Notes under the pieces: generated by a model
What the model was told of the DNA's origin: nothing
Databases searched by the model: none
The model's input: the letters and a program-made list of their open reading frames with translations, nothing else
Assembly (NCBI GenBank): GCA_021161255.1
Contig: JAGHAZ010000027.1
Coordinates: forward strand, 2,076 to 66,075
Source of the DNA: Candidatus Bathyarchaeota archaeon
Lineage (GTDB): Archaea > Thermoproteota > CALKCG01 > B24
Reading direction: 5' to 3'
Length of the DNA: 64,000 nt
In this document: piece after piece, positions 4,288-50,137 of the stretch
Position numbering within the stretch: position 1 is the stretch's first letter
How the letters are laid out: each line of letters opens with the position of its first letter
Made by a program: the position numbers and the translations under genes

Positions 4288-4310
4288 AGACGTTAGGGAA
4301 AACGCTCCGA

Positions 4311-10989: not shown

Positions 10990-12960
10990 ATGGGAGAGGA
11001 AAGAGTCGAACGTTTTCCGATAGCGTTAGTGATTCTAGTGCCTTTGGTTCTAGGGTTTTTAGGACCGATCTGGCAGTTACTTATCAGTAGCTTCCCATAT
11101 TGGATCGTGAACTCTCTGGGCGAGTCTGTCTGTCACATAGGGCTGACAACTGCGCCTTTTCTAGTACTTCTGCTGACAGCGCCGATCTACAGGATAAAGT
11201 CTTTAAGAGAACGTTTCGGCGTTAAGACGTTGGCGTACCTATACATAAGTTCTCTGGTGACTTCATATTTCATCAACTATCCATGGGCTTTAGGACAGCG
11301 CTACCTTTACTCGGTTAGGATCACGGAGAGGGAGCTTGCGGAGAGTATTGTACCTACGTTCATGTGTCCACCATATGACGTGGTGATACGTCTATCTACT
11401 GGCGGTCCGATAGACTGGGGTGCATGGGCGACTCCGATTGCATGGTTCTGGCTACACAATATAACCATGGGGATATTCATGCTGTCTGTAGCGACGTTGT
11501 TCAGAAGACTCTGGATAGACGTTGAAAGGGTTCCGTTCCCGCATGCATTAGTTGCATACGAACTGGCTAAAGGCAACGTTTCAGAGAGGGGTTGGAGTAA
11601 ATTCTTCATCATAGGAGTCATAATCGGTCTGGCTTTCCAGATCCCGGTAACACTCACAGGGATATTCCCATGGTTCCCGGATATTTATGGAGTTCAATAT
11701 CGAACTTGTCCTATGCTGACTAGATGGTTTGGCGGCGACGAGCCTATGGGTGCGATACCTGGTATGATGAGCATGACCTACAACCCGACAGCTGTAGCTG
11801 TAGCCTATCTAGCTCCATTGTCCGTACAGTTTAGCACATGGTTCTTCGCCGTGATGTATATGGTCGCCGTACAGATAGCATGGTACATGGGCTTCTACAC
11901 AGGCATAACAGACATCGGGACCTGTGGCCGATACTGGTGCTCTCCATCACCTACTACTGAGCCTCCGTTGAAATTCGGAGCTATCGCTGTAGGTGCTCTC
12001 GTAGCAATGGGTCTAATGCATCTAATACTTAACCGACATTATCTTTCCGAGGTCTTCAGAGCTGCTTCTAAAGGCTCAAGCGAGTTTAAAGATGAGGCTA
12101 TGAGCTACAGGACATGCTTGCTAATCATGGCTGTATCGGCTGTGGCGGCGATAGCTTTCTGGATGGGGTCTGGCCTATCTTTCATAGATGCCTTGTTCCT
12201 ACCTATAACGGCGTTCTGCATATGGTATCCGATGAATCGTCTCTTCGGACTCGCTGGAGCTTACTGGAGAAGTTCTGATAAAGGTCTAGTGTTCTTCAGG
12301 TTGCTCCATCCGATGTGTCACACGCCTGTAACGACTCAGGAGTACTTAATCTATAGAACCGCTGTCCAATCATGTTCGGATACACCGACCTATCCTTGGG
12401 GTGGCGCGGCGGTTTCGGCGTTCACGTCATATAAGTTTGCTAGTCTTGCTGGTCTAAGTGCCAGGAACACGTTTAAGACGCTGCTTGCAGCTCTGCTGAT
12501 AGCCCCGTTAGCGTCGCATATATCGTTCATATGGCTTCTCCATACGGTCGGTGGTGAGCATATAGGCATATGGTCGAGCTGGTTCTTAGGTATAGGTGAA
12601 CGACTTTCACGGATACCTGACTGGTGGTCTGCCACTCCGGCTCGTGAGCCTTGGGTCGAATATGCAATCATAGGTGCTCTGCTGATGATTGTTTTAAGCT
12701 GGCTTCACGCGAGGTTTGTATGGTTCCCGCTTGAACCCATAGGCTATATACTAGGTACAACCGCTGCCTCGGCTCTATTCGGACTATGGTCGGCCTTCCT
12801 CGTGGCTTGGATCTTAAAGATGATAACTCTCAGAGTCGGTGGGGCTAAGCTCTACGAGGGCTATGGGGTCCCTGTGGCATCAGGAGCAACCGTAGGCTGT
12901 ATGATAGGGATGATCTTCGGCGGTGTACTATGGATCATAAGGTTCTTCGTACCGTTTTAA
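10990..12960 (+). CDS. Polytopic membrane protein, unknown family (WIDVERVPFPH motif; ...ITLRVGGAKLYEGYGVPVASG...RFFVPF); paralog of 4357..6444
   Basis: 656-aa ORF. Shared motifs and a conserved 3' UTR (cccaatttttt ... ggaat(a/t)cctttat) are listed under 4357..6444. Confidence 0.65.
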   Translation: MGEERVERFPIALVILVPLVLGFLGPIWQLLISSFPYWIVNSLGESVCHIGLTTAPFLVLLLTAPIYRIKSLRERFGVKTLAYLYISSLVTSYFINYPWALGQRYLYSVRITERELAESIVPTFMCPPYDVVIRLSTGGPIDWGAWATPIAWFWLHNITMGIFMLSVATLFRRLWIDVERVPFPHALVAYELAKGNVSERGWSKFFIIGVIIGLAFQIPVTLTGIFPWFPDIYGVQYRTCPMLTRWFGGDEPMGAIPGMMSMTYNPTAVAVAYLAPLSVQFSTWFFAVMYMVAVQIAWYMGFYTGITDIGTCGRYWCSPSPTTEPPLKFGAIAVGALVAMGLMHLILNRHYLSEVFRAASKGSSEFKDEAMSYRTCLLIMAVSAVAAIAFWMGSGLSFIDALFLPITAFCIWYPMNRLFGLAGAYWRSSDKGLVFFRLLHPMCHTPVTTQEYLIYRTAVQSCSDTPTYPWGGAAVSAFTSYKFASLAGLSARNTFKTLLAALLIAPLASHISFIWLLHTVGGEHIGIWSSWFLGIGERLSRIPDWWSATPAREPWVEYAIIGALLMIVLSWLHARFVWFPLEPIGYILGTTAASALFGLWSAFLVAWILKMITLRVGGAKLYEGYGVPVASGATVGCMIGMIFGGVLWIIRFFVPF

Positions 12961-17900: not shown

Positions 17901-18577
17901 ACGCTATGGACCTACACAAGTTCATATATGACCTCGAGAAGGTTTCCCTCGGATACCCATCGTGGAGGGAGAAAAACATGCGGCTTGAGATAACTAGGGT
18001 TAAACCTGTTACTAGGGTTAGAACAGTGGACGACGTTTTACGCGATGTTAGAGTGGTTCGTGAACAGCTCCGCGTCGTCGACAGCAAGCTCAAAACTCTA
18101 GAAAAACTCAAAGCTACGACACCGTCGGAATTGTTGACCGAATACGAGAAGAAATACCTCGCTCAGGCTGAAAGGCTTAACCGTACTATACGTCGTCTCG
18201 GTTTGGAACTCGAGCCGTTCTATGAGGAACTTAATAAGGAGTCTCAGAAGTTAAGCACCGAAATAGACCGGCTGAATATAGCCTATAAGCTTGGAGAGAT
18301 ATCCGAAGAAGAATACAGGTCTTCTGTAGAGCCTCTGAAGAATAGGCTTAGCGAGGTTCAGAAGAAGCTTAACGATATAAAGTTCGTGCTGACTCAGCTT
18401 AAGATGCCGAGGGCAAAGCTTACGAGGATAAGGTTGCCGGCACGGAGGATCGCACGGAGAAAGAGGGTCGAGGAGACCCCAGGCCTTATGTACTGTCCAT
18501 ACTGTGGAAGCACGAACCTAATAAAAACTCCAAGCGGCTCGATAATATGCGGGAGATGCCGTAGAAGACTACGTTAA
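14978..18577 (+). CDS. Giant (1199 aa) surface/membrane protein: signal peptide, ~320-aa extracellular domain, TM cluster, MacB-like periplasmic-type domain, FtsX permease domain, cytoplasmic coiled-coil, C-terminal C4 zinc ribbon
   Basis: TTG start. FtsX motif ...IVLVMNSVIYERRKEIWTLAVLGGNPRNITNMFLTEALITGILSTTIGY.... Heptad-rich segment ...LRVVDSKLKTLEKLKATTPSELLTEYEKKYLAQAERLNRTIRRLGLELEPFYEELNKESQKLSTEIDRLNIAYKLGEISEEEYRSSVEPLKNRLSEVQKKLNDIKFVLTQLK. The protein ends with CPYCGSTNLIKTPSGSIICGRCRRRL. Confidence 0.65.
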   Translation: MNANSFKVILTVLAVLLLIPVSTLTVAQESIKDVKCTLILYIMNYVTSSPEPRINVSVVLTNVTLSGVTDEFGCVKSSFNASKDAINNLVLNELSLYGNFTVIRIQDYLMEDLQYDSSYSESTVTYTGLAIRPRVVESRNEVLLYYYVYVLKGRVVNVSDLDVSTMQILSNGELRIRRRKLILDARPAVPIDRSVSMYESLYLFPLNYTVDVKVKVYRYRYLIREYSVKALVTGNRTYVNIMGPILDIKINETLKPFEEKIATLKFLGLPMIDEERLLIRINNQKDSILRLIENRSYDPAFAQLRFLAKKVAELESNLSNLDASLAWSSILVMAFIYAFSSLLPTLMTDDAKRKLILKFAIYFSLFLIFLYSHNEFKIALSIISSNILLTNIKYLDDFTVLLMGVTVGSLGVLIPTLISLYSPPVVSLSLDLSIRDLKRHFSRSLLTILAFSLIIASTLAVFKMSYSHMLSETETQAHFKRDVVCLQSTTNNIIVKENLIFLKSMHWINSSYLFKSLYGDISLDSISGFTAVRIISQDYGMLDQRFEILGVDPEFLDEYFNFSLTITKGGYLSGSERAVLVPASLEYYLRPLDRVRIRFVIVSATGQQLVDVAEYDFGEFIVKGFFDPDSVDKITLPDGSPLIDTPYKTIIVPGDLLPDSIDARHLTITIPRLRNVVSFQGPTYINILKVRYAFLLPDPRSGVDVYEKARELMDLTGFRAFGFSNGVCKTYEELYVLNIVGFSSIVPPIVIVTLIIVLVMNSVIYERRKEIWTLAVLGGNPRNITNMFLTEALITGILSTTIGYLCYTAVYLSSRVLIPIIQSLNPEMVKLFTEMKSTSGFDLSSILIVLFMGLAVPVVGSYIPCIKAHGLTLLGRPPKRNIGEDVRTRGELAEYHLPIRATPFDGEMLYNYLKDNFLTKTFQVKKLSGNAYQDGTFDFKFTLQFRNVLTECSLKGIRRGDTIYPVLTFPAKFIDAMDLHKFIYDLEKVSLGYPSWREKNMRLEITRVKPVTRVRTVDDVLRDVRVVREQLRVVDSKLKTLEKLKATTPSELLTEYEKKYLAQAERLNRTIRRLGLELEPFYEELNKESQKLSTEIDRLNIAYKLGEISEEEYRSSVEPLKNRLSEVQKKLNDIKFVLTQLKMPRAKLTRIRLPARRIARRKRVEETPGLMYCPYCGSTNLIKTPSGSIICGRCRRRLR

Positions 18578-18618: not shown

Positions 18619-21600
18619 TTACCTTCCAGATCCAGTACCGGTCATCAGAGACTTCTTGTATCTCTCCCAGTCTTTAAGCGCATCTCTTACGACGCTTACC
18701 GTTAACTCTATCGCTCGCTCAGGCATACCTTCGACCTCGGGTTTCGACAAGAGAGTTATATAGAACCTATCTGAATCACGCGTTCTCGTAGCTCTGAGCT
18801 CGTTTATGGTGGCATACTCCTTGTATCTGTGTATAAATCGTACTCTGACTACCTCAGTGCCGTCAACTAGAATCTCTTCTTCAAGCTTGAGGTTTTCGAT
18901 GCGTTCGACTAGACCCGAGACCTCCTTCAACCTATCAGTTATGAATGCTGTGAAGAAGGGTTTCTCGCGTTTATGAACCCTAACAGGCATGGATATGCTT
19001 CTCTCATGGTAAACCTTGAAGATCTTCTCCTCTCTCTTAGCCTTCTCAGCCTCAGGGATCTTGACTTTTCTTATAAGCGATGGAGTGGCCATAACTGCTG
19101 CTCTGATCGCGGGTACAACCGCGGATAGCACCGAAACACCTATCGAAACCAGTAGCCCTATAACACCCCAATACCATTCAAGCTTCTCTCTGACACCTAT
19201 CTGCCCAGCGGGTCCTAGTAGGCTCATAAGCCTGTAGGCACCTAAACCGATGTAGTAGCCTATGCCGCCGCCTATAAGACCCATAACTATCGACTCGGCT
19301 AGGAAGACGCTGGCTATGTGTGCTGGGTTAAGCCCTAACGCCGCTAAGAGGAACATCTCGTTTCTACGTTCGTAGATCAGGTTGATCATCACCATGAACA
19401 CGTTCAGGAAGACTAGCGTAGCCGGTATCAGAAGCTCTTTGAATCCCTTAATCTCCCATTTTTCACCTGTGTATACTTTTGTAACTTCGCCGTTGAAGAA
19501 GATCCAGGCATAGTATTCTCTCAGAGCCATCTTGTTAGCAAAGTTCTTTAATGTTTTTTCATCGCCCATGGGGATGAAAACCGCAGATATGCCCACTTTT
19601 TCCGAGAGACCGGTTGTCTCTCCCTCTGAAGAGGGAAGCGATATTATCGTCCAAGCGTTGAAAACGGCGAACTCTGTGGCGTTGACAGGCTGAAGTTCTC
19701 CTTCGCTGGTAAGCTTATAGGGTGCTATAGGCTTACCGTTCAAATCGTTAACTCCCAGAATCGCTGGGTTTACATAGCCTACTAGCGTAAAATTCCAGGT
19801 TTGCGTTTCCACACCTCCCATTAGTCGAGATACTTGAATCCTATCCCCAGGCTTTACTCCGAGACTCCTAGCTAAGCTTTCGGTTATCGCTATGCTCATG
19901 TTTTCCTCGAAGAATCCCTTCGGCAAGTAGTTGGCCACGCCTAAGACCTCAGCCTCCTCAGCGGTTAAACCAAGTACACCTAGGAGGTCTACGTTACGCC
20001 CCTTCAAACTCCTTAAACGCACCACCGAGGAGTTTGAGGGAACGTTTTCCACCCTGATCATAAAGTTCTCGGCTCCATAGGCCTTCAAAGCCTCCAGCTC
20101 TCCTGCTGCGAAAAACTGTTGCACACTCGAGATCTTCGTGGCATTCAGAGGTGCCTTCTCTAAGAGACAGCCATTCACGTGAACGTTTGTAGAGGAGGGG
20201 CCCTCGACTACTATACCTTGAACCCTCGAGAACGATGTAAACGCTGTCAGCACCATCACAAGCATCGCTAGCGATAGGATGCAGAAGCTGGACCTAAGCT
20301 TTCTACGTTTGACGTTACGCTTGCCTATGGAGAATATGACGGTGATTATACTCTTAAGCGACGCTCTCCCCTCGATCTCTGGTGGTCTATAGATCCGTGG
20401 GAAGATGAAGTATAGGGTGACCGTTAACACGATCGACGCTATGATCACAGCGATGAAGAATAGATTTCCTTGAACTGTTACAGCCTTAAGGCCGAATACC
20501 TTTCCGAAGCCGAAGAGGTCGAACACTATCTTACACTGAGGATGCATGATTATCCTGAAGCCTGGGTAGATGTAATACAGCGAGACTATGATCAGTGGGT
20601 ACAATATTAGCGTCGTGATCAGCTTTTTCCTAGTGTCTTCAAACAGGAAGCTTCCTATAGCTATCGAGAAGACGGCGAAGAACGGTGGATAGAACGTTGC
20701 ATGAGACTGTGCTAAAGCTCTCATAACGCCTAGACGGTTTTCAAGAAGCCTTAGACTGTAGTATGCTTCCTCAAGATACTGAAACCTAGCCGCGTCAAGC
20801 TCGCTCTCGGTTGGGCTTGGGTTCAACGGTGGTAATAAGCTTTTAGCCGCTTCAACGTTTTGTATAACTCCCTGCTGGAGGTCTTCTCTCTCAGCTCCGA
20901 CGTAGAATCCTTCTTGCTCAGCCTGTGCAAGCTTCTCCTCGAGTTCCCTAGTTAAAGTCTCAAGCGTGTCGGCGCTCACTTTATACATCTCGCTTCGGAT
21001 GTCTACGAGTATCTTCTCTCCCTTATGCAACTTTATCGGTTTACCTTGAAAGCCTATGAGCATAGAGAGAACATCTTTCCTCCTCGTACGTTCATTGAGG
21101 AATTGCATCTTCGCTACTAGATAGACGGATGTATCAGCCGGTATTATTATCACGTTTCTTGCGAATAACTCTCGTGAGGATAGATACTGAATGTCGGCTC
21201 CTAATATTCCAAGCCTTTTTTTAACGCTGTGAACCGGTGGCTCACCGTATATCACGACTGTTCCACTAGGAAGCATGGGCGTTTCGAAAGTCGAGGAGTC
21301 TACAAGGGTAATTATATACCATGAAGGCGCAGATTTGCTGAGTATATACCACATGTCGGCTTTTCTCCTTGGATAGATCTCCACCATAGCCCCTGGTACG
21401 AGATCAAAATCTATTTTCAACGAGTTTTTTACCCCACCGTTCGAGATATCTTCAGGATATAGCGCCGGTACGTAGTCGACCAATCCTGTAGACTCGTTTG
21501 TATGGAGCACATAGATCAGATACTCACATCTCAGACCGTACATGTCATACATCGGTAGAGTGATCTCGTAGAAGCCCTCGCTGTTCGTGTACGTGATAAA

Positions 21601-21792
21601 ATATCTCTGCTCAAAGCTTCCACGCCAGGGTATCGCTATTATAGTTGCGTTAAAGATGGGCTTCGACGTGTAGTAGTCTATAACCCTACCGTAGATCCTT
21701 AAGGTCTCATCGTTCGGCTGAGCGATAGCGTTAAACGTTATTAAGGATAGTAGCACTAGAGTGATGGAAAGCAAAATCTGTTGTCTTCGCAT
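18619..21792 (-). CDS. Giant (1057 aa) surface/membrane protein: signal peptide, carboxypeptidase-regulatory-like (transthyretin-fold-like) N-terminal module, extracellular coiled-coil, TM cluster, FtsX permease domain, cytoplasmic tail
   Basis: ATG start. The N-terminal ...RIYGRVIDYYTSKPIFNATIIAI... pattern is typical of CarbopepD_reg-like beta-sandwich modules. FtsX motif ...LVFLNVFMVMINLIYERRNEMFLLAALGLNPAHIASVFLAESIVMGLIGGGIGYYIG.... Paralog of the other two giant ORFs. Confidence 0.65.
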   Translation of the reverse strand: MRRQQILLSITLVLLSLITFNAIAQPNDETLRIYGRVIDYYTSKPIFNATIIAIPWRGSFEQRYFITYTNSEGFYEITLPMYDMYGLRCEYLIYVLHTNESTGLVDYVPALYPEDISNGGVKNSLKIDFDLVPGAMVEIYPRRKADMWYILSKSAPSWYIITLVDSSTFETPMLPSGTVVIYGEPPVHSVKKRLGILGADIQYLSSRELFARNVIIIPADTSVYLVAKMQFLNERTRRKDVLSMLIGFQGKPIKLHKGEKILVDIRSEMYKVSADTLETLTRELEEKLAQAEQEGFYVGAEREDLQQGVIQNVEAAKSLLPPLNPSPTESELDAARFQYLEEAYYSLRLLENRLGVMRALAQSHATFYPPFFAVFSIAIGSFLFEDTRKKLITTLILYPLIIVSLYYIYPGFRIIMHPQCKIVFDLFGFGKVFGLKAVTVQGNLFFIAVIIASIVLTVTLYFIFPRIYRPPEIEGRASLKSIITVIFSIGKRNVKRRKLRSSFCILSLAMLVMVLTAFTSFSRVQGIVVEGPSSTNVHVNGCLLEKAPLNATKISSVQQFFAAGELEALKAYGAENFMIRVENVPSNSSVVRLRSLKGRNVDLLGVLGLTAEEAEVLGVANYLPKGFFEENMSIAITESLARSLGVKPGDRIQVSRLMGGVETQTWNFTLVGYVNPAILGVNDLNGKPIAPYKLTSEGELQPVNATEFAVFNAWTIISLPSSEGETTGLSEKVGISAVFIPMGDEKTLKNFANKMALREYYAWIFFNGEVTKVYTGEKWEIKGFKELLIPATLVFLNVFMVMINLIYERRNEMFLLAALGLNPAHIASVFLAESIVMGLIGGGIGYYIGLGAYRLMSLLGPAGQIGVREKLEWYWGVIGLLVSIGVSVLSAVVPAIRAAVMATPSLIRKVKIPEAEKAKREEKIFKVYHERSISMPVRVHKREKPFFTAFITDRLKEVSGLVERIENLKLEEEILVDGTEVVRVRFIHRYKEYATINELRATRTRDSDRFYITLLSKPEVEGMPERAIELTVSVVRDALKDWERYKKSLMTGTGSGR

Positions 21793-21920: not shown

Positions 21921-23213
21921 TTAATCCAAGAACCTTTTACCCCAATACTCCAAGGCACGTTTAAGCTCAGGACTACTCTTAGCATACTCCTCGAGCGGTA
22001 CTCCTTGCATAACAGCCTCTATAGCCGCCATCATGGCTTTGGCACCTGCTCTTGTGCCGTCTGGATGTCCATGTATACCGCCACCTGCGTTGATGAGTAT
22101 ATCCCTACCGAGTGCCTCTATGTTCCTAGGCACTAGGGCTGGGTGTATTCCTCCCGACGCCACGGGCATGACGTTTTTAAGACCATACCATGGTTCCCTA
22201 AGCCAATCGTCTATACGCCTCAGCTCTGAGACCGAGGTTGTTTTTTCCATTTTACCCGCGGCGGTTCCTGTGTGAAGCTGGTCACCGCCCGCAAGCCTGA
22301 CAAGCTTGGCTATGACCATCATATGTATTCCATGTCTGGGATTTCTAGTGAAGGCCGCGTGCATGGCCCTATGGACGTGTATCGGTACGTTTACAGAGGG
22401 ATCTTCGGCTATGGCCTTCAACGCAGAGAATCCTGCACATATCACGTCTACCATGAGACAGTTAGCTCCATTCTCTATAGCCTTATCTGCGTACTCGAGT
22501 ATTTTAGGATAGTCAGCTGTCACGTTTAGGGCGTAAAGCACATGCTTACCGGTCTCTTCCCTAACTCTATCTAGCATCTCCATAACATGGGTTAGTCTAT
22601 CGAGCAGGGGACAGAAGCGTTGGTTAACCAAGGTTTCGTCGTCTTTAACTAGGTCTACACCCCCCATAGCCGCCTCGTAAGCCACCTTAGCGAATTCTTT
22701 AGGGTTTAAACCTACTTTAGGCTTAACGATCGTGCCTAGATGAGGGCGTCTGCTTTCGAGGGTTCCGACGATCTTCCTGATACCTTCTATGCCAAACTTA
22801 GGGCCTTTAAACATCTGAACATAGCTTTTTGGTAAGTGTATATCTAACAACCTGACGTTTTCGACTGAGGATAACCCAAATACATTACCGGCTGCCACGC
22901 TTAAGAGGTTCGGTATACCGCTTTCTAGGTCGAATAGCTCAAGAGGTGTGGCTATGTGAACGATACCATAGCCGTTTCTATGCTCAAGTTTAAAGATCCT
23001 ACCTGCTAAATGTCTGGGCTCACCTGTCTTAACCCTGGTCCACGTTCCTATGGTGGATTCGGCTGCTAAATCTATACCGGCGTCTAGAAGCGTTATACCA
23101 GGTCTAGGCTCGACAAGGTAGGTGGTGATTACGTGTTTATCAGGATCTGCCCAGTTTTCAGGAGCCGTGTATATTTCACGCCAATAATCCCTCGACGTTT
23201 CTATATGGGTCAT
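21921..23213 (-). CDS. rbcL: Ribulose-1,5-bisphosphate carboxylase/oxygenase large subunit, archaeal type III
   Basis: 430-aa ORF with RuBisCO active-site signatures all present: ESTIGTWT, AAGNVFGL, KPKVGL, GGVDLVKDDE (carbamylated Lys), IHVHRAMH, PVASGGIHP, GGGIHGHP. Confidence 0.85.
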   Translation of the reverse strand: MTHIETSRDYWREIYTAPENWADPDKHVITTYLVEPRPGITLLDAGIDLAAESTIGTWTRVKTGEPRHLAGRIFKLEHRNGYGIVHIATPLELFDLESGIPNLLSVAAGNVFGLSSVENVRLLDIHLPKSYVQMFKGPKFGIEGIRKIVGTLESRRPHLGTIVKPKVGLNPKEFAKVAYEAAMGGVDLVKDDETLVNQRFCPLLDRLTHVMEMLDRVREETGKHVLYALNVTADYPKILEYADKAIENGANCLMVDVICAGFSALKAIAEDPSVNVPIHVHRAMHAAFTRNPRHGIHMMVIAKLVRLAGGDQLHTGTAAGKMEKTTSVSELRRIDDWLREPWYGLKNVMPVASGGIHPALVPRNIEALGRDILINAGGGIHGHPDGTRAGAKAMMAAIEAVMQGVPLEEYAKSSPELKRALEYWGKRFLD

Positions 23214-38914: not shown

Positions 38915-39169
38915 ATGGGCTCCTCTCAGAAGATCAGGTTTGATATATTTAAGCACGAGCTCGTCCCTAAACATAGCATCTTGTCGAAGGATGAGGTAGA
39001 GGATCTTCTAAGGAGATACCATGTCAAGAAGTATCAGCTTGCTAAGATCATGGCCCGCGACCCGGCTGCGGTGGCCATAGGTGCTAAGCCCGGTGATGTC
39101 CTCCGGATCGTTAGGAGGAGCCCGACAGCCGGTTTAGCTGTATTTTACAGGTTTGTAGTGGAGGGTTGA
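38915..39169 (+). CDS. rpoH: DNA-directed RNA polymerase subunit H (Rpb5 homologue)
   Basis: 84-aa ORF ...HELVPKHSILSKDEVEDLLRRYHVKKYQLAKIMARDPAAVAIGAKPGDVLRIVRRSPTAG...; its position upstream of rpoB is conserved. Confidence 0.85.
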   Translation: MGSSQKIRFDIFKHELVPKHSILSKDEVEDLLRRYHVKKYQLAKIMARDPAAVAIGAKPGDVLRIVRRSPTAGLAVFYRFVVEG

Positions 39170-42100
39170 AATTGTACACGCAAGATGATATGTGGATTTT
39201 GATGAAAGCCTTCTTCGAGGAGAAGGGCCTAGTCAGGCAGCATCTAGACTCGTATAACGAGTTCGTCGAGAAGGGGTTACAGCGTGTCATAGATGAGATC
39301 GGTGGCGTAGAGGTTCCTGTTGAAAGTGGGAATCTCTATATAGAGTTCGGCGAGGTTACGATAGGTACTCCTAGGGTTACAGAGGTCGACGGCTCTTTCC
39401 ACGAGGTTACACCGCTCGAGTGTAGGCTTAGAAACCTTACCTATTCTGCACCGCTGTTTCTCGAAATGACGCCGATATTGAACGGTAAAAAGATGACGAC
39501 CAAGAGTGTCTACATCGGAAACCTACCGGTTATGTTGAAGTCTAAGATCTGTCCTCTAAGCGATATGACTAGAGAGGAGCTTCTAGCCATAGGTGAGGAT
39601 CCAGACGACCCCGGCGGGTACTTTATAATAAACGGCTCGGAGAGAGTGATAGTTGGCTTAGAGGACCTTGCTCCAAACAGAGTGATCATAGACATCGATA
39701 GAAGCGGCTCTAGGCCCGTCTACAGGGCTAAGGTATTCTCCACGACCGTAGGCTTTAGGACCAGGGTCGAGGTGAAGCTCAAGCCTGACGGGGCGATATA
39801 CGTTTCGATACCCGGTGTATCAGTCGAGCTTCCGTTTGTAGTGGTCATGAAGGCCCTGGGGGTTGAGAAAGACAGCGAGATAGCTGAGATGGTGTCTCTT
39901 GACCCGGTTATCATGGAGCAGCTTGAGCCGTCCTTCGACAAGGCTCCTAGGATAGACAGCGTCGAAAGGGCTATAACGTATATCGGTAACAGGGTCGCCT
40001 ATGGTCAAGACGAGGCCCGTAGGAGACTTAGGGCTTGTACGATCTTAGATAACAACCTGCTTCTACACCTGGGCAGAAGCCCAGAGGTCAGGCTTAAGAA
40101 GGCTAGATACCTAGCCGAGATAGCGTGTAGGCTTATTCAGCTTAAACTAGGCTTAAGAGCCGAAGATGATAAAGATCATTATGCTAATAAACGTATCAGA
40201 CTTGCAGGTCCACTTCTGGCAGACCTATTCAGGTCCATATTCCGGGATATGATTAAGGATATGGCCTATCAGCTCGAACGCTTATCGGTTAAAAAGCTTA
40301 TAGAAGAGTCTGTTAAACTTGCCATAAGGCCGGGAATCCTCACGGAAAGGATGCAGCACGCCATAGCTACCGGAAACTGGGGTAGAGGTAGGGTAGGTAT
40401 AAGCCAGCTTTTGGATAGGACGAACCTTTTATCCACGCTCAGCCACCTCAGGAGGCTTCAGTCTCCGCTGAGCAGAAGTCAGCCTAACTTCGAGGCTAGG
40501 GACCTGCATTCTACGCACTTCGGTAGGCTCTGCCCTATCGAAACACCTGAGGGCTCTAACTGCGGCTTGGTGAAGAACCTCGCCTTAATGGCCACTATAT
40601 CTGTCTCAGCCGACATAGAGCCTGTCAGGAAAGTGTTGATAAGTCTTGGATGCGTTCCGATCGAAAAGGCCGATAGAGAGACGTGCATTAAGGGCGTTAA
40701 GGTGTATATAAACGGGACCGTAAGCTTCTACACCCTAGACCCTGAGGGCCTAGTTAAGAAGTTTAGGAAACTTCGGAGGAAGGGGCGTATAAGTCCTGAG
40801 GTTAACATAGCGTATCTTAAGGCTAAGAGGGAGGTTCAGGTAAACTGCGACGCGGGTAGGTGTAGGAGACCGCTCATAGTCGTCGAGAACGGTAAACCTC
40901 TGCTCAAGCCGGATCACGTAAACGCCTTGAAGAAGGGGTTGATGAACTGGGAGGACTTGGTTAAACTTGGTGTCATAGAATACCTAGACGCCGAGGAGGA
41001 GGAGAACGCCTACATAGCGTTGACTCCCAAGGATATCAGGCCTGAGACCACGCATCTTGAGATCTGCCCGCTTACCATACTCGGTATATGTGGCTCCGTA
41101 ATACCGTTTGCTGAGCATAACCACTCGCCCAGAAACAGCTACGAAGCCGCTATGGCCAAACAGGCCATAGGGATATACGCTACCAACTACTTCTTACGGA
41201 TGGACTCTAGAGCCCACTTCTTACATTATCCGCAGAGGCCGATCGTCGAGACCAAGCCCATGGAGATTATGGGCTTCCACAAGAGACCTGCCGGCCAGAA
41301 CATGGTGGTCGCCGTGCTTACGATGGGAGGCTATAACATGGAGGATGCGATAATATTCAACAGGTACTCCATCGAGAGGGGTTTAGCCAGGTCGTCGTTC
41401 TTTAGACTTTACGAGGCTGAGTGCTACCAATACCTAGGCGGTCAGAGAGACTCGATCGAGATACCTTCAAGCGGCATGAGGGGATATAGAGGTGACGAAT
41501 ACTACCGGGTTCTAGAGGAGGACGGGATAGCCAGCGTCGAAAGCGAGGTCAGAGGAGGAGATGTCATAATCGGTAGAACAAGCCCACCGAGGTTTATAGA
41601 GGAGTATAGGGAGCTAGAGGCCAGAGGCCCCTCGAGAAGAGATACCTCTATATCTTTAAGGCCCTCGGAGAAGGGCGTCGTCGACGCGGTCATACTGACC
41701 GAAACCGCTCAAGGAAGTAAGATTGTGAAGGTCAGGGTTAGAGATAACAGGATACCTGAAATAGGTGATAAGTTCGCGTCTAGGCACGGGCAGAAGGGCG
41801 TCATAGGCATGATATATCCTGGTGAAGATATGCCGTTTACAGAGGACGGAGTAGTCCCGGATGTCATAATAAACCCCCATGCGTTTCCGTCTAGGATGAC
41901 GGTTGGCCAGCTCTTAGAGTCTATATTTGGTAAGGCCGCGGCCCTCATGGGAAGGCCTATAGACGGTTCAGCCTTCCAAGAGGAGAGACTCGAGGATATA
42001 GGCGCTATACTGAAACGTTATGGTTTCAAACCAAGCGGTAGGGAGATAATGTATAACGGTTTAACAGGTGAGAGGCTGGAGACCGAGATATACATCGGCA

Positions 42101-42501
42101 TAGTATACTACCAGCGGCTACACCACATGGTAGCCGATAAGATACATGCCAGGGCTAGAGGGCAGGTTCAGATGCTCACGAGACAGCCTACGGAGGGTAG
42201 AGCTAGAGGCGGAGGCTTGAGGTTCGGTGAGATGGAGAGGGACTGTCTCATAGGCTACGGTGCGGCTATGCTGCTTAAGGATAGGATGCTCGAGGAATCT
42301 GACAAGTTTGTAGCCTATGTATGTGCAAACTGTGGCTTCTTAGCTTATTACGATGCAAGAAGCGGTAGATACATGTGTAGGTTGTGCGGAGATGATGCCC
42401 GGATATACCCGGTCGTCATGCCCTACGCGTTTAAGCTACTTCTCCAGGAGCTGATGAGTATGTGCGTAGCTCCCAGGCTTATACTGGAGGAGGGCATGTA
42501 A
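39166..42501 (+). CDS. rpoB: DNA-directed RNA polymerase subunit B (unsplit, 1111 aa)
   Basis: ...GYFIINGSERVI..., ...FASRHGQKGVIG..., and the C-terminal Zn-binding CANCG...CRLCG. TTG start overlapping the rpoH stop (the alternative ATG at 39190 gives MWILMKAFF...). Confidence 0.9.
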   Translation: MKLYTQDDMWILMKAFFEEKGLVRQHLDSYNEFVEKGLQRVIDEIGGVEVPVESGNLYIEFGEVTIGTPRVTEVDGSFHEVTPLECRLRNLTYSAPLFLEMTPILNGKKMTTKSVYIGNLPVMLKSKICPLSDMTREELLAIGEDPDDPGGYFIINGSERVIVGLEDLAPNRVIIDIDRSGSRPVYRAKVFSTTVGFRTRVEVKLKPDGAIYVSIPGVSVELPFVVVMKALGVEKDSEIAEMVSLDPVIMEQLEPSFDKAPRIDSVERAITYIGNRVAYGQDEARRRLRACTILDNNLLLHLGRSPEVRLKKARYLAEIACRLIQLKLGLRAEDDKDHYANKRIRLAGPLLADLFRSIFRDMIKDMAYQLERLSVKKLIEESVKLAIRPGILTERMQHAIATGNWGRGRVGISQLLDRTNLLSTLSHLRRLQSPLSRSQPNFEARDLHSTHFGRLCPIETPEGSNCGLVKNLALMATISVSADIEPVRKVLISLGCVPIEKADRETCIKGVKVYINGTVSFYTLDPEGLVKKFRKLRRKGRISPEVNIAYLKAKREVQVNCDAGRCRRPLIVVENGKPLLKPDHVNALKKGLMNWEDLVKLGVIEYLDAEEEENAYIALTPKDIRPETTHLEICPLTILGICGSVIPFAEHNHSPRNSYEAAMAKQAIGIYATNYFLRMDSRAHFLHYPQRPIVETKPMEIMGFHKRPAGQNMVVAVLTMGGYNMEDAIIFNRYSIERGLARSSFFRLYEAECYQYLGGQRDSIEIPSSGMRGYRGDEYYRVLEEDGIASVESEVRGGDVIIGRTSPPRFIEEYRELEARGPSRRDTSISLRPSEKGVVDAVILTETAQGSKIVKVRVRDNRIPEIGDKFASRHGQKGVIGMIYPGEDMPFTEDGVVPDVIINPHAFPSRMTVGQLLESIFGKAAALMGRPIDGSAFQEERLEDIGAILKRYGFKPSGREIMYNGLTGERLETEIYIGIVYYQRLHHMVADKIHARARGQVQMLTRQPTEGRARGGGLRFGEMERDCLIGYGAAMLLKDRMLEESDKFVAYVCANCGFLAYYDARSGRYMCRLCGDDARIYPVVMPYAFKLLLQELMSMCVAPRLILEEGM

Positions 42502-42502: not shown

Positions 42503-45500
42503 ATGATGCTTGAGACTTATAAACGTATAGCCGGTATAAAATTCGGTCTGCTTTCGCCGCATGAGATCAGGAAGATGTCTGTAGTTGAGATAAGGACGCC
42601 CGACACGTACGACGAAGACGGTGTCCCGATACCATCTGGTCTCATGGACGGTAGACTTGGAACGCTCGAACCGAGGCAGAGGTGCGCTACATGCGGTAAC
42701 ACGGCCGCCATGTGTCCCGGCCACTTCGGCCATATAGAGCTTGCCGTGCCCATAGTTCACGTGGGTTTTGTGAAATACATATACGAGCTTTTAACGATAA
42801 CATGTAGGGAGTGCGGAAGGCTTCTGATTCCACCTGATAAGATCGAGAAGCTTAAAGAGAAGATGGAGGAGCTTAAGAAATCCCTCGGAGAGGTTCCTAA
42901 GAGGTTTTTCGACAGCGTCAAATCTGAGGCGAAGAAGAGGTCTGAATGTCCCCACTGCGGTAGCCCTCAGTATCGTATAGAGCTTATGAAGCCGACGACG
43001 TTTTACGAGCATCAGAGAGAGGGAGGGGTCGTAAGGCTTGATGCAGGTACCATAAGAAGTAGGCTTGAGAGGATACCTGATGACGACCTTAGGCTTTTAG
43101 GCTACGACCCATCTTCGGCTAGGCCTGAGTGGACTATACTACAGGTTCTACCTGTTCCACCGGTTTACGTCAGACCCTCCATAACGCTTGAAACGGGCAT
43201 AAGGTCTGAGGACGACCTAACCCACAAGCTCGTGGATATAATTCGTATAAACGAGAGGCTTAAAGAAGCCATAGCCAGCGGTGCGCCGACTCTTATAAGG
43301 GAAGAGCTCTCGGACCTCCTCCAGTATCATGTGACGACCTATATCGATAACGAGGCTCCTGGCATACCTCCGTCTAGACACAGGTCTGGTAGAGCCCTTA
43401 AGACCCTTAGCCAGAGGCTTAAGGGTAAGGAGGGGAGGTTTAGGCTAAATCTGACCGGCAAGAGGGTTGACTTTTCTGCTAGAACCGTAATATCTCCTGA
43501 CCCGAACTTAGATATCAACGAGGTAGGTGTCCCCATAGATATCGCTAAGAGGCTCACGGTTTCCGAGAAGGTCACAGTGTGGAACTTGGAGGAGATGAAG
43601 AAGCTTGTCATAAACGGACCGGACGTATATCCAGGTGCTCTATACGTAACTAGGCCGGACGGTAGAAAGATCAGGCTGGACTTCGTAGCCGATAGGAAGA
43701 AGCTTGCCGAAAGCCTCGAGCCGGGTTATATAGTAGAGCGTCATATACGAGACGGTGACATCGCGTTATTCAACCGTCAGCCCTCGCTACATAGAATCTC
43801 TATAATGGCTCATAAAATAAAGGTTCTACCGTATAAGACCTTCAGGCTTCACCTAGCCGTGTGTATACCCTACAACGCAGACTTCGACGGAGATGAAATG
43901 AACCTTCACATTCCCCAGAGCGAAGAGGCTAGGTCTGAAGCTAGACTACTTATGCAAGTTCAAGACCAGATAATATCGCCTAGGTACGGTGCCCCGATAA
44001 TAGGCTCGACCAGGGACTTTCTAACAGCAGCCTACCTGCTCACGAGGAAAGATACCTATCTAGATAAGAGGGAGCTTTTCACCCTCCTCGCCGCCATAGA
44101 TTACGACGGCGAAATACCTCCGCCTGCTATAAAAGAGCCTGAACCCCTGTGGACCGGTAAACAGGTGTTCAGCCTATTGTTACCTAAAGATTTCAACTAC
44201 TTCGGTAGAGCTACGGTCTGCAAGCATAAGCACACATCTCCGGATGAGGAGTGTCCGCTCGAAGGTGTGGTAGTCGTCAGAAACGGGCAACTCGTCAAGG
44301 GAGTTATAGATAAAAACTCCATAGGCGCCGAAAGGGCTGAGACACTCTACCACCGAATAGTCAGAGACTACGGTACAGGTTTCGCAGCCACATTCCTCAA
44401 CAAACTCTGCCGACTACTCAACACTTTCATAACGATGAGGGGGTTCAGCTTCTCCCTAGACGAGCTTAACCTCCCGGAGAAAGCTAAGGAATCCATAGCC
44501 CAAATCCTGAGAGAAGCCGAGGAGAGGGTTCAGAAGCTTATAGAGGAGTATAACCGCGGTACTCTGAGGAGGATTCCAGGTAGAACTCTAGAAGAGTCGT
44601 TGGAGCTTTTGATAATGAACGAGCTGTCTAAGGCTAGAGAGCGTTGCGACGAAGTCGCCTCGACTTCGCTTACGATGAATAACCAGGGGATAATAATGGT
44701 TAGATGCGGCGCCAGAGGTTCCGAGCTTAATATAGGCCACATGACGGCTTGCTTAGGCCAGCAGTCAGTGAGGGGTAGACGAGTTGTATGCGGCTATCTA
44801 GATAGAGCTCTGCCGCACTTCAAATGGGGTGACCAGAGTCCGAAGGCGAGAGGCTTCATCGAATCGTCCTTCTATAAGGGCCTGTCTCCCATAGAGTTCT
44901 TCTTCCACTCTATGGCGGGTAGAGAGGGTCTAGTCGACACGGCTGTAAGGACGCAGCAGAGCGGTTATATGCAGAGAAGGCTTATACACGCGCTTGAGTA
45001 CATAAGGGTCGAGTATGACGGGACTGTCAGGACGACAGACGGCGAGGTTGTTCAGCTAAGATACGGTGAAGACGGAGTAGATCCATCGAAGAGTGACCAC
45101 GGTAAAGCCGTGAACCTCCAGCGTCTGTTAGAGAGGATGAGCCTTGGGGGCTGTGATACGCCTCCCACGCCTGAGGAGTTGGATGAGCTTCTGGAAAAGT
45201 ATCGTCTCAAGCTCACACCTTACTATATCTCTGAACTTAGACGTATAATACTCGATAAGCGTCTAAGCTTGGAAGACGCTAGGAAACTTATAGAGGCGAC
45301 GGTGGTCGAGTTTGAAAACTCCCAGGTCGACCCTGGTGAGGCCGTCGGCGTTGTAACCGCTCAGTCTATAGGCGAACCCGGTACCCAGATGACCCTTAGG
45401 GTGTTCCACTTCGCGGGTGTAAGAGAGCGGGACGTGACGCTAGGTCTTCCGAGGCTTATAGAGATCGTGGATGCGCGGAAGAAACCGTCTACGCCTATAA

Positions 45501-46330
45501 TGACGGTTAAGCTCGATGAGGAGCATAGGTTTGACAGGGATAAGGCTTTGGCCGTGGCCCAGTCACTCGTTCACACGGCCATCAGGGACATCGCGGCTAA
45601 GGGCCAATACGAGATAGACCTTGACAATGGTGTAGTGAGGGTTAAGATCGATAGAGTCGCTATGGAGAATAGAGGTGTAACCGATGAAGACCTAGAAAAC
45701 CTTTCGCTACCTAACACCACTATAGAGTTCACCGGGGACGAGGTCGTCGTTAAACCTAAGTCCGCCATGGATCTCCCAGGTCTCAAGAAGCTTGTCGATA
45801 AAACTATGAAACTTCATGTCAAAGGTGTACCTGGCATCAAGAGGGTCCAAGTCGTTAAAGAGGGTGATGAATGGATAATCCAAGTCGACGGTTCAAACTT
45901 CAGTAAGGTGATCCAAGTCCCTGGCGTGGACCCCGCTAGGACCATGACGAACAACCTATATGAAATATACGACACCCTCGGAATAGAGGCTGCTAGAAAC
46001 GCTATTATAAAGGAGGCGAAGGAGGTTTTCGAGGGCATAGGCGGTGGTCTAGACCTCGACATCAGACATCTTATGCTGGTGGCTGATATAATGACACTCA
46101 CGGGTAGAATCCGTCAAGTAGGTAGACACGGGGTGACCGGTGAAAAGTCCAGCCCCCTTGCTAGGGCTGCCTTCGAGATAACGGTGTCTAACATAGTCAA
46201 CGCGGCGGTCAGGGGTGTTATGGACGAGCTGAAAGGAGTCACGGAGAACATAATAGCCGGTCAGGATATGAAGGTGGGTACGGGTATGGTGGATATCTAC
46301 ATGAGTCCAAGCTCGTCGGAAGGGAGGTGA
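42503..46330 (+). CDS. rpoA: DNA-directed RNA polymerase subunit A, with A' and A'' apparently fused in a single 1275-aa ORF
   Basis: N-terminal Zn motifs (CATCGNTAAMCPGHFGH) and the NADFDGDEMN catalytic loop are A' hallmarks. From ~aa 900 it carries ...DPGEAVGVVTAQSIGEPGTQMTLRVFHFAGV..., the canonical A'' N-terminus. No stop or frameshift lies between them. Confidence 0.85.
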   Translation: MMLETYKRIAGIKFGLLSPHEIRKMSVVEIRTPDTYDEDGVPIPSGLMDGRLGTLEPRQRCATCGNTAAMCPGHFGHIELAVPIVHVGFVKYIYELLTITCRECGRLLIPPDKIEKLKEKMEELKKSLGEVPKRFFDSVKSEAKKRSECPHCGSPQYRIELMKPTTFYEHQREGGVVRLDAGTIRSRLERIPDDDLRLLGYDPSSARPEWTILQVLPVPPVYVRPSITLETGIRSEDDLTHKLVDIIRINERLKEAIASGAPTLIREELSDLLQYHVTTYIDNEAPGIPPSRHRSGRALKTLSQRLKGKEGRFRLNLTGKRVDFSARTVISPDPNLDINEVGVPIDIAKRLTVSEKVTVWNLEEMKKLVINGPDVYPGALYVTRPDGRKIRLDFVADRKKLAESLEPGYIVERHIRDGDIALFNRQPSLHRISIMAHKIKVLPYKTFRLHLAVCIPYNADFDGDEMNLHIPQSEEARSEARLLMQVQDQIISPRYGAPIIGSTRDFLTAAYLLTRKDTYLDKRELFTLLAAIDYDGEIPPPAIKEPEPLWTGKQVFSLLLPKDFNYFGRATVCKHKHTSPDEECPLEGVVVVRNGQLVKGVIDKNSIGAERAETLYHRIVRDYGTGFAATFLNKLCRLLNTFITMRGFSFSLDELNLPEKAKESIAQILREAEERVQKLIEEYNRGTLRRIPGRTLEESLELLIMNELSKARERCDEVASTSLTMNNQGIIMVRCGARGSELNIGHMTACLGQQSVRGRRVVCGYLDRALPHFKWGDQSPKARGFIESSFYKGLSPIEFFFHSMAGREGLVDTAVRTQQSGYMQRRLIHALEYIRVEYDGTVRTTDGEVVQLRYGEDGVDPSKSDHGKAVNLQRLLERMSLGGCDTPPTPEELDELLEKYRLKLTPYYISELRRIILDKRLSLEDARKLIEATVVEFENSQVDPGEAVGVVTAQSIGEPGTQMTLRVFHFAGVRERDVTLGLPRLIEIVDARKKPSTPIMTVKLDEEHRFDRDKALAVAQSLVHTAIRDIAAKGQYEIDLDNGVVRVKIDRVAMENRGVTDEDLENLSLPNTTIEFTGDEVVVKPKSAMDLPGLKKLVDKTMKLHVKGVPGIKRVQVVKEGDEWIIQVDGSNFSKVIQVPGVDPARTMTNNLYEIYDTLGIEAARNAIIKEAKEVFEGIGGGLDLDIRHLMLVADIMTLTGRIRQVGRHGVTGEKSSPLARAAFEITVSNIVNAAVRGVMDELKGVTENIIAGQDMKVGTGMVDIYMSPSSSEGR

Positions 46331-46337: not shown

Positions 46338-46652
46338 ATGGTGAATCCCGATAAAGCTATCTACAGTGTCGTTAGAACGGGTAAGGTAGTGTTTGGCTCT
46401 AGAAGGTCTTTAAACCTTCTTAAAACCGGTAAAGCCAAGATGATAATCATGGCGTCCAATGCCCCAAAAGATTTAAGAATGCTTGTCGATTACTACAGTA
46501 AAGGAGCTTCGATACCGGTCTACGTGTACAACGGTACTAGTATCGAGCTGGGTCGTGTCTGCGGTAAGCCGTTTCCGGTTATGATGTTGGCTGTGAGAGA
46601 TCCGGGTGAGTCGAATATAATGGAGTTGGTGGCTGAGAGCTATGAAGAGTGA
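46338..46652 (+). CDS. rpl30e: Ribosomal protein L30e
   Basis: 104 aa, ...VVRTGKVVFGSRRSLNLLKTGKAKMIIMASNAPKD...; canonical position between rpoA and nusA. Confidence 0.8.
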   Translation: MVNPDKAIYSVVRTGKVVFGSRRSLNLLKTGKAKMIIMASNAPKDLRMLVDYYSKGASIPVYVYNGTSIELGRVCGKPFPVMMLAVRDPGESNIMELVAESYEE

Positions 46653-47082
46653 GGGTGTAAGACTTACGGCTGAAGAGATGGGTCTCATAAATATAGTCGA
46701 AAACTTGACCGGAGCGAGGTGTCGAGACTGCCTGATAGACCCTGAGACTGGCAGGGTGACTTTCATCGTAGAGGAAGGCGACCTACGGCTGGCTCTGGGT
46801 AAGAGGGGGTCTAAGGTTAGACTTCTGAGGAAGCTTCTAAGGCGTGAGGTGGATTTTCTAGAGTATGCTCCGAGCCCCGAGAAGTTCATAGTTAAATCGC
46901 TAGCGCCGGCTAAGATTAAAGAGGTTAGGATAACCGAGAGGCCGAACGGCGATAAATTGGCTGTCGTGACCGTTGAACCTAGAGATAAGGGTCTTGCGAT
47001 AGGTAAAAACGGCCGGGTCATCGAGAGAGCTAGGAAACTCGCGAGGAAATATTTCCAAATCAGCCATATAATCGTCGTGTGA
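46642..47082 (+). CDS. nusA: Archaeal NusA-like KH-domain transcription termination/antitermination factor
   Basis: Two KH-like segments (...LALGKRGSKVRLL... and ...LAIGKNGRVIERARKLA...). Confidence 0.8.
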   Translation: MKSEGVRLTAEEMGLINIVENLTGARCRDCLIDPETGRVTFIVEEGDLRLALGKRGSKVRLLRKLLRREVDFLEYAPSPEKFIVKSLAPAKIKEVRITERPNGDKLAVVTVEPRDKGLAIGKNGRVIERARKLARKYFQISHIIVV

Positions 47083-47205: not shown

Positions 47206-47631
47206 ATGCCTGGAGAATTCGCGGCTAGAGTTCTAAAGAAGAAGAGGAAGAAGTTTAGGTGGAGCTATCGATACTACAAGCGTAGGATGTTAGGTCTAGA
47301 TATTAAGGCTGACCCCTTAGAAGGTGCTCCCATGGCTAGGGGTATAGTGCTTGAAAAGGTCGGTGTAGAGTCAAAGCAGCCGAACTCAGCGATCCGTAAA
47401 TGTGTAAGGGTTCAGCTTATAAAGAACGGTCGTGTCGTGACGGCCTTCTTGCCTGGCGACGGTGCGTTGAACTTCGTAGACGAGCATGACGAGGTTATAA
47501 TCGAAGGTATCGGGGGTACAAGGGGTAGGTCTATGGGCGACATACCCGGTGTAAGGTTTAAGGTCATAGCAGTTAACGGCGTGCCTTTAAACAGGCTTAT
47601 AATAGGTAAGGCGCAAAAGCCGATCAGGTAG
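47206..47631 (+). CDS. rps12: Ribosomal protein S12 (uS12)
   Basis: ...[31 protein letters not shown]...[12 protein letters not shown].... Confidence 0.9.
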
Positions 47632-47650
47632 CTTCGGGTGGTGATCCTAG

Positions 47651-48226
47651 TTGTCTGAGAAGGATGAGATTAAGCTTTTCGGAAGATGGTCTTACGAGGG
47701 GGTTGAGGTTAAAGACCCTAGCCTTAAGGGCTACATATGTCTCAGACCCGTTTTCTACGCTAGGACCGGTGGACGGCATGAGCACCGGCCGTTCGCGAAG
47801 GCCAACGTTCCGATAGTGGAGAGGCTTGCAAACCAGCTTATGCGTCCCGGTAGAAACGCAGGGTTAAAGGTTAAAGCATTAAACATCATAAGGAATGCCT
47901 TTGAGATAATCCATCTTAAAACAGGCGAGAACCCTCTTCAGGTTTTAGTTAGGGCTGTGGAGAATGCTGCTCCCTGCGAGGATGTTACTAGAGTAGCCTA
48001 CGGTGGTATAGTGTATCATAGAGCCGTCGACGTTTCACCTTCTAGAAGACTGGACTTGGCTTTGAGGTACCTCGTAGACGGTGCTAGGCTTAAGGCATTC
48101 GGTAATCCTAGAACCATAGACGAGTGTTTAGCCGATGAGATAATCAAGGCTGCTGAGGGCTCTCAGGATTCGTATGCCGTCCAGCGTAAGGACGAACTTG
48201 AACGCATAGCACTAGCCTCTAGGTAA
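47651..48226 (+). CDS. rps7: Ribosomal protein S7 (uS7)
   Basis: 191 aa immediately downstream of S12, with S7-family conserved blocks (...[12 protein letters not shown]..., ...[11 protein letters not shown]...). Confidence 0.85.
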
Positions 48227-48317
48227 ACTCTCCTCAGTCCTTCTCTGTTTTCGATCGTAGCGGCCTCAAGTTGGCTACAGACGCGTTCTAGCCTAATCTG
48301 CTGGCCCTTTTTAAAGC

Positions 48318-48332
48318 AAACTTTTTATAACT
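48318..48332 (+). promoter_or_regulatory. Putative TATA element for tuf
   Basis: aaaCTTTTTATAAct lies ~40-50 nt upstream of the EF-1alpha ATG. A purine-rich aataggggga sits just upstream of the ATG. Confidence 0.3.
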
Positions 48333-48371
48333 GGTTCATGAGTTACTTCCCGAATAGGGGGATTTGACGTT

Positions 48372-49670
48372 ATGAGCCAGAAACCTCACTTAAACCTGGT
48401 GATATGCGGGCACGTGGACCATGGTAAGAGTACTTTGATGGGTCACCTACTATACCTAGTAGGCGCTATAGATGAAAGGACTGTTAGGGAGTATGAGGAG
48501 CAGGCCAAGGCTTTGGGTAAGGAGTCGTTCAAGTATGCATGGGTTATGGATAGGCTTAAGGAGGAGAGGGAGAGAGGCCTAACTATCGACTTGGCTTTCG
48601 TCAAGTTCGAGACCGATAGGTATTTCTTCACGATCATAGATGCTCCTGGTCACAGGGACTTCATCAAAAACATGATCACCGGTGCCAGCCAGGCGGATGC
48701 TGCGCTTCTAGTGGTCTCTGCTAAGAGGGGTGAGTACGAGGTCTCGATACAGCCCGGCGGACAGGCTAGAGAGCACGCGTTCCTACTTATGACGTTAGGC
48801 GTCAGGCAGATGGCCGTAGCCATCAATAAGATGGACGACCCGACCGTCGACTGGAGCCAGAAGAGGTATGAGGAGTGTAAAGAGGGTGTAACGAGGCTTT
48901 TGAGGACGATAGGCTACAACGTTTCTAAGATACCTATAGTACCTGTCTCGGCTTGGACTGGAGACAATATAGTTAAACCTAGCGAGAAGATGCCGTGGTA
49001 TAAAGGACCTACGTTGCTACAGGCTCTTGATACATTCGAGGTTCCACCGAAGCCGGTAGACAAGCCTCTGAGGATACCTATCCAAGATGTCTACACGATA
49101 ACCGGTGTCGGCACCGTCCCCGTCGGTAGGGTTGAAACTGGAGTGCTTAGGGAAGGCCAGACAGTTATATTCATGCCGTCTGGAGCTAAGGGCGAGGTCA
49201 GGTCCATAGAGACTCACCACGTCAGGATCAAAGAAGCCTATCCAGGTGACAACATCGGTTTTAACGTTAGAGGCGTGTCGAAGACCGATATCCGGAGAGG
49301 TGATGTAGCAGGTCCACCTGACAATCCGCCTACGGTAGCCAAGGAGTTCATAGCTAGGATAATCGTCGTCTACCACCCGACTGCCATAGCCGTAGGCTAT
49401 ACGCCTGTGATGCACGCTCACACGGCTCACGTGCCATGTAAGCTCGTCGAGATTCTGAGGAAGGTGAACCCGAGGACCGGTGAAACAATCGAGGAGCATC
49501 CATCGTTCCTGAGGACCGGTGACTGTGCGATAGTGAGGATGAGGCCTCTGAAACCGGTTGTGCTAGAGCAGTATTCTGAGATACCTCAGCTCGGTAGGTT
49601 TGCCATCAGAGACATGGGAACCACCATAGCTGCAGGTATAGTCGAGGAGATCACGGAGAAAGGTCCATAG
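48372..49670 (+). CDS. tuf: Translation elongation factor 1-alpha
   Basis: G1 [10 protein letters not shown]3 DAPGHRDF, G4 NKMD, plus domains II/III; 432 aa. Confidence 0.92.
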
Positions 49671-49750: not shown

Positions 49751-50137
49751 TTGAGGTTAAGGTTCCCTAAAACCCTTGTGGCTGTAGTTCTTATGCTATT
49801 CTCGATCTATATGGTTTGCGGAGGTATATACGTGGTCGTAGAGAGCAAGGAGAATGATTACGTAAACCAGTTATGGGTTCGGCATAGACAAACCGGAAGG
49901 CTTACTCCCATATTCCCAAGCCTCAGGTCTCAGATAGTCGGTGAGGGCTATGTGATAGGTATTATTCTTTCACTAGGTGCTATTGGATTGCTACTACCCT
50001 ATACCGGTTTGAGGTTTAGGATGAGTCCCGACGCCATGAAAACCTTATTGGCCATCTCAATCCTGTTGCTTTTAGTCTCTATCTACTTGACGTTTAGCAT
50101 ATACTTCTCTAAACTTCGCGGAGATGCTTGGCCTTAA
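49751..50137 (+). CDS. Small membrane protein (3 predicted TM helices), unknown function
   Basis: 128-aa TTG-start ORF with hydrophobic helices; no recognisable motif. Confidence 0.35.
   Translation: MRLRFPKTLVAVVLMLFSIYMVCGGIYVVVESKENDYVNQLWVRHRQTGRLTPIFPSLRSQIVGEGYVIGIILSLGAIGLLLPYTGLRFRMSPDAMKTLLAISILLLLVSIYLTFSIYFSKLRGDAWP

Follow-up and report, generated by a model that had tools for sequence, protein, structure and literature searches.

An unsplit gene for the largest RNA polymerase subunit in Bathyarchaeia

In a 64-kb stretch of DNA from a Candidatus Bathyarchaeota archaeon (hereafter the window; GC content 49.2%) we found that the largest subunit of RNA polymerase (RNAP) is encoded by one continuous gene, rpoA (42503..46330, + strand), whose reading frame is intact and whose product is collinear with the A' and A'' subunits taken together. 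The same one-piece form occurred in all sampled relatives, and the gene is under purifying selection. We are highly confident that this is a normal, functional gene of the Bathyarchaeia which provides the whole catalytic subunit as a single A-type chain of about 143 kDa.

The gene was assigned as an unsplit, A-type largest subunit from its ORF, from Pfam and NCBIfam matches, and from an identical 1275-aa protein in the public databases (MCD6443852.1, from a 72-kb contig of a Candidatus Bathyarchaeota archaeon). The ORF list of the window gives an ATG-initiated frame of 1275 aa; its translation is stop-free from nt 42503 to 46327 and its product has a mass of 143.2 kDa as predicted from the sequence. 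Rpb1 domains 1-5 (PF04997, PF00623, PF04983, PF05000 and PF04998) were all found on this single ORF in canonical order, within aa 7-1217 and with E values from 1.6e-93 to 2.2e-28, which places the one-piece assignment far beyond chance. NCBIfam equivalogs for both halves were also matched: TIGR02390 (A') on aa 7-875 with 1337 bits against a cut-off of 1042.55, and TIGR02389 (A'') on aa 909-1267 with 422.7 bits, barely above its cut-off of 420.65. Judged by sequence, the catalytic elements are intact, namely the Mg loop NADFDGD (aa 458-464, nt 43874-43894), the bridge helix GYMQRRL (aa 821-827; YMQRRL at nt 44966-44983) and the trigger loop, with the motif AQSIGEPGTQMTL around aa 953-965 and GEPGTQ at aa 957-962 (nt 45371-45388). 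Between bridge helix and trigger loop lie LERMSLGG (aa 876-883, nt 45128-45151), GGCDTPPTPEELDELLEKY (aa 882-900, nt 45146-45202) and DPGEAVGVV (aa 943-951). An earlier note on this DNA had described a single 1275-aa ORF spanning A' and A'' and had quoted these three peptides together with GEPGTQ and NADFDGD; the ORF was borne out by the stop-free translation, the five Rpb1 domains and the two equivalogs, and the peptides lie where they had been placed.

Solved structures of split archaeal enzymes were used to locate the point at which two genes would be expected to meet. Residues 4-875 of the Sulfolobus/Saccharolobus Rpo1N chain (880 aa) aligned with aa 7-879 of the rpoA ORF, and residues 11-391 of S. 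acidocaldarius Rpo1C (36rp_C) with aa 894-1270. From both split subunits the canonical A'/A'' break extrapolates to aa ~884 (nt ~45152-45154), which agrees with the expectation in the earlier note of a junction at about nt 45120-45240 without stop or frameshift. Since the ends of Rpo1N and Rpo1C extrapolate to the same residue, the net linker is about zero and the join is seamless. The A'-equivalent portion (aa 1-884; 42503..45154, +) carries the zinc motifs, the NADFDGD loop and the bridge helix and was delimited by the Rpo1N alignment and these motifs, while the A''-equivalent portion (aa 885-1275 plus the stop codon; 45155..46330, +) carries the trigger loop and was delimited by the Rpo1C alignment and TIGR02389. 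From the PDB alignment limits and the codons, the junction itself was defined as aa 880-893 (SLGGCDTPPTPEEL; 45140..45181, +), which aligned to neither Rpo1N nor Rpo1C. In-frame sense codons run throughout aa 876-900, with no stop and no frame change at the split point; the A' end and A'' start at about residue 880 that characterize the two-gene A'A''-type are absent from the window.

The split Rpo1N and Rpo1C of Sulfolobales and Thermococcales (PDB 2pmz, 2waq, 7ok0, 4qiw and 8cro) are collinear with the window ORF and have the same catalytic motifs, with E = 0 over aa 7-879 for Rpo1N and E ~1e-101 over aa 894-1270 for Rpo1C. However, these orders have two genes and two chains, whereas the rpoA of the window lacks both a stop and a start at the position corresponding to aa ~884. 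The eukaryotic subunits Rpb1, RPC1 and RPA190 resemble the window in that one chain passes through the site; their bridge-helix and trigger-loop blocks align with it, and a 186-aa junction query matched the eukaryotic chains with E ~1e-38. They differ by a large insertion at this site, where Rpb1 has about 150 residues (878 to 1030) and RPC1 about 65 (939 to 1004), compared with about 49 in the window, and the C-terminal repeat domain of Rpb1 is absent from the window rpoA. As the junction is continuous but insertion-bearing in Rpb1, RPC1 and RPA190, the site is evolutionarily plastic. Because these homologous chains are continuous, we infer that the rpoA chain adopts the fold of the A'+A'' pair and stays uncleaved after translation. 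Its N-terminal 884 residues would serve as A'/Rpo1N, with the clamp, the zinc sites, the Mg-binding NADFDGD loop and the bridge helix, and its C-terminal 391 residues as A''/Rpo1C, with the trigger loop and the jaw. A short stretch of low conservation joins the two parts, at exactly the site at which other archaea end one gene and begin the next.

The gene is part of the canonical rpoH-rpoB-rpoA-L30e-nusA transcription/translation cluster. The cluster begins with rpoH for subunit H/Rpo5 (38915..39169, +; NCBIfam NF007129, E 2.3e-31, above cut-off), which is overlapped by 4 nt by rpoB for an unsplit subunit B of 1111 aa (39166..42501, +; NCBIfam NF006335, 1719 bits with the cut-off at 1402, aa 4-1109). 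The rpoA start lies 1 nt after the rpoB stop. Downstream follow an L7Ae/L30e-family ribosomal protein in the L30e position of the operon (46338..46652, +; PF01248, E 8.3e-20) and an archaeal NusA-like KH-domain protein (46642..47082, +; Pfam KH_2 and NusA-like KH_5). Downstream, the conserved cluster closes (47206..49670) with the genes for ribosomal proteins S12 (47206-47631, +; PF00164) and S7 (47651-48226, +; PF00177) and for EF-1alpha (48372-49670, +; Pfam GTP_EFTU and eEF1A C-terminal domain). We take rpoA to be co-transcribed within the rpoH-rpoB-rpoA-L30e-nusA-S12-S7 cluster.

Some other features of the window were recorded as well. An S10 gene is absent downstream of EF-1alpha, and its place is taken by an ORF with a TTG start (49751-50137, +) that encodes a hydrophobic, membrane-like protein of 128 aa without Pfam match. 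The window also encodes a 430-aa homologue of the RuBisCO large chain (21921-23213, -; PF00016 with E 1.3e-82, and PF02788) and three very large ORFs of 767, 1199 and 1057 aa (10-2313, +; 14978-18577, +; 18619-21792, -), among which one FtsX-like permease domain was the only Pfam match. Two paralogous ORFs of the DUF6785/DUF6784 type (OPT-like transporter; 4357-6444 and 10990-12960) lie near these large ORFs. No tRNA genes and no Rfam families at gathering score were found in the whole 64-kb window.

We scanned a 266-aa segment spanning the junction against one genome per GTDB species, which yielded 362 confirmed relatives, and we retained the 80 best. Almost all of these 80 were labelled Bathyarchaeota/Bathyarchaeia or Nitrososphaeria/Thaumarchaeota, and the junction was crossed in one frame in every one of them (80/80). 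Over rpoA aa 860-930 the alignment was stop-free in 79 loci; the other one (L014) is truncated by the contig start, yet on direct translation it reads through the junction. In 69 of the 80 loci an ORF longer than 1200 aa, measured from stop to stop, carries both NADFDGD and GEPGTQ. Nine of the 11 loci without such an ORF are cut by contig ends, and the other two are L039, with a single +1 frame change in rpoA at aa 749 (position about 3845), and L027. A further locus fetched separately from the 80 (L081) has one +1 frame change in rpoA at aa 816 (positions 3981-3983). None of the interruptions in L039, L027 and L081 lies at the junction. The frame changes in L081 and L039 look like assembly indel errors and not like biology. 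Elsewhere in L081 (6435-7271), S12 and S7 are called as one product of 278 aa. In L027 (Nitrososphaeraceae JB080, JBNAIF010000055.1), the contig starts with non-coding sequence that is AT-rich and of low complexity (1-670) and adjoins rpoA at aa 797; because seven other Nitrososphaeraceae loci are intact, this contig end is probably chimeric. A partial Caldarchaeum protein (P0093) is also continuous through the junction. The unsplit rpoA is uniform across the sampled Bathyarchaeia and Nitrososphaeria genomes. Archaeal A-type rpoA was also present on a contig labelled Candidatus Methylomirabilota bacterium (L064, DATKOK010000090.1) and in a protein labelled Anaerolineae bacterium (P0020), probably from archaeal contigs that were mis-binned into bacterial MAGs.

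The 90% cluster of MCD6443852.1 contains five further full-length members of 1275 aa from NCBI, JGI and ENA records. One of them, from the MAG Candidatus Bathyarchaeota archaeon B24, has the NCBI name "subunit A'/A''", which is also given to partial proteins from Bathyarchaeota, Bathyarchaeales and Nitrososphaera. This MAG (LUCB01000003.1) was the nearest among the best 80, with 97% aa identity over the segment. It agrees with the window in the length of 1275 aa, in the 90% protein cluster and in gene order over 8.8 kb, but it represents a different population or species, with 90.8% DNA identity over these 8.8 kb (9.2% of bases differ) and five aa differences in aa 855-925. With this divergence the frame could be tested by selection. 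For the whole rpoA gene dN/dS was 0.028, and for codons 861-915 it was 0.10, with 12.5 synonymous versus 5.5 non-synonymous differences and no gap columns. Purifying selection acts across the rpoA junction. The one-piece rpoA is a heritable lineage trait that is common to relatives and maintained by selection, and not a one-off.

The 70 complete sequences were aligned with each other, and the distance between the bridge helix (QRRL) and the trigger loop (GEPGTQ) was 133-136 aa in all of them (70/70). The least conserved columns form the stretch directly after LLERM, where indels of 1-4 aa occur. Neither a conserved cleavage motif nor an internal start was visible at the junction in this alignment, and no relic start codon or Shine-Dalgarno-like codons were conserved there across the 70 sequences; the region is simply variable.

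Subunit A of archaeal RNAP is known in two forms (Da Cunha et al. 2017, PMC5484517). One is the A-type, a single polypeptide, which these authors assign to Thaumarchaeota and Korarchaeota; the other is the A'A''-type, made of two subunits, which they assign to Euryarchaeota and Crenarchaeota. Zhalnina et al. 2014 described the thaumarchaeal rpoA as a single, unsplit gene (PMC4084955), and Spang et al. 2013 named the unsplit gene among the putative ancestral features of Thaumarchaeota (PMC3852633); their text says 'DNA polymerase subunit A', which we read as a slip for RNA polymerase. The earlier note took a split largest subunit to be the rule in Archaea, which is incomplete: for Thaumarchaeota and Korarchaeota the unsplit A-type has been published as a marker. 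Its wording "fused" presumed a derived state, while the same three papers (PMC5484517, PMC4084955, PMC3852633) treat the gene as unsplit and possibly ancestral. Like the window ORF, the A-type RpoA/Rpo1 of Thaumarchaeota/Nitrososphaeria and Korarchaeota is a single chain of ~1265-1320 aa that covers A' and A''. The Nitrososphaeria loci of our survey share with the window the operon position and the bridge helix-trigger loop spacing of 133-136 aa, and the identity between the window and sequences of Nitrososphaeria and more distant Bathyarchaeia was 50-58% across the junction segment. The window differs from the known A-type in taxon (class Bathyarchaeia); we found no architectural difference. 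Bathyarchaeota were included in the RNAP trees of Da Cunha et al. (PMC5484517). Our literature search found no paper that names Bathyarchaeota for the A-type trait, for which the basis in this group is the genomic survey and the NCBI protein names.

A one-piece gene might also be the derived state, if Bathyarchaeia and Nitrososphaeria descend from an ancestor with split A' and A'' genes, as in other Thermoproteota, that were rejoined by loss of the stop. We consider such a secondary re-fusion possible but rather unlikely. A seamless join exactly at the canonical split would be expected from stop loss between abutting or overlapping genes, but a single origin of the split, in which an unsplit ancestor acquired a stop and a start, predicts the same seamless join just as well. 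Secondary fusion has been reported for Pacearchaeota (PMC5484517), and trees with the clade inside TACK/Thermoproteota beside the split Thermoprotei would, by inference, need at least one extra event. On the other hand, Da Cunha et al. consider a single split most parsimonious and such events rare, and favour one split event after the divergence of Korarchaeum (PMC5484517), and the junction keeps no relic start codon or Shine-Dalgarno-like codons conserved in the 70 sequences. The junction sequence is compatible with a state retained from an unsplit ancestor as well as with re-fusion.

It is considerably less probable, and in our view very doubtful, that the one gene gives rise to two proteins, either by post-translational cleavage at the variable linker or by an internal start yielding an A''-like protein. 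The linker is indeed the least conserved and an indel-tolerant part, and many database proteins begin at an internal Met (MQRRL). Every ~450-aa 'A''' entry that we retrieved begins at this position, an internal Met of the bridge helix (P0049, P0058, P0069, P0077, P0085 and P0116). The many entries of this length, which cover ~91% of the junction query, had suggested an alternative split ~60 residues upstream, and this candidate was rejected. The MQRRL start is part of the bridge helix and precedes the canonical split by 60 residues, and in both cases that were looked up it had a technical origin: the entry from Bathyarchaeota BA1 lies at a contig end, and that of L081 overlaps an upstream call of 827 aa by 38 nt and results from the single +1 frame change. 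Because these two trace to a contig end and a frame error, we regard MQRRL starts as gene-calling or assembly artefacts; the ~450-aa entries are truncated or broken calls of an unsplit rpoA, and no biological split. The missing cleavage motif and internal start at the junction likewise speak against two products, as do the eukaryotic homologues Rpb1 and RPC1, which are uninterrupted across the site. In a separate observation on the BA1 contig (L082, LIHJ01000048.1), S12 is called as a protein of 660 aa (2392-4374) in which a Pfam Intein_splicing domain lies between two S12 halves, suggesting an intein inside rpS12.

The earlier note had left two alternatives, a genuine one-piece gene of the lineage and an error that removed a stop and a spacer from the contig of an organism with separate rpoA' and rpoA''. 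The former gained support from the 80/80 loci, the public proteins of equal length and purifying selection. An assembly error in the window is excluded for practical purposes: frame errors do exist in related public assemblies (one +1 change each in L039 and L081) and many database entries are truncated 'A''' calls, but these frame changes fall at aa 749 and 816, away from the junction at ~884, the best 80 related loci are all in frame across it, six full-length 1275-aa proteins of at least 90% identity stand in separate records, B24 is indel-free over codons 861-915 with dN/dS 0.10 despite 9.2% divergence in bases, and a translated spacer would leave extra length where the junction has no net extra length.

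For practical purposes, a one-piece rpoA on a Bathyarchaeia contig is no ground for an error flag. The artefacts are instead the short 'A''' entries starting at MQRRL, which could mislead automated surveys of split and unsplit genes, and those rpoA genes of related MAGs that are broken at other sites. By the earlier note's own criterion, the same fusion in close relatives would turn it into a known and less novel lineage trait; close relatives do share the one-piece form, so the claim of novelty fails. The arrangement of the one-piece rpoA has been described before and its protein is in public databases, and as a real lineage trait it carries little weight as a discovery. The unsplit rpoA has for years been cited as a marker that sets Thaumarchaeota and Korarchaeota apart from Crenarchaeota and Euryarchaeota, and it has figured in arguments on the archaeal root (PMC5484517, PMC3852633). 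If re-fusion were true, the catalytic subunit would have undergone splitting and fusion more than once in Archaea, and the split or unsplit character would be useless for rooting the archaeal tree.
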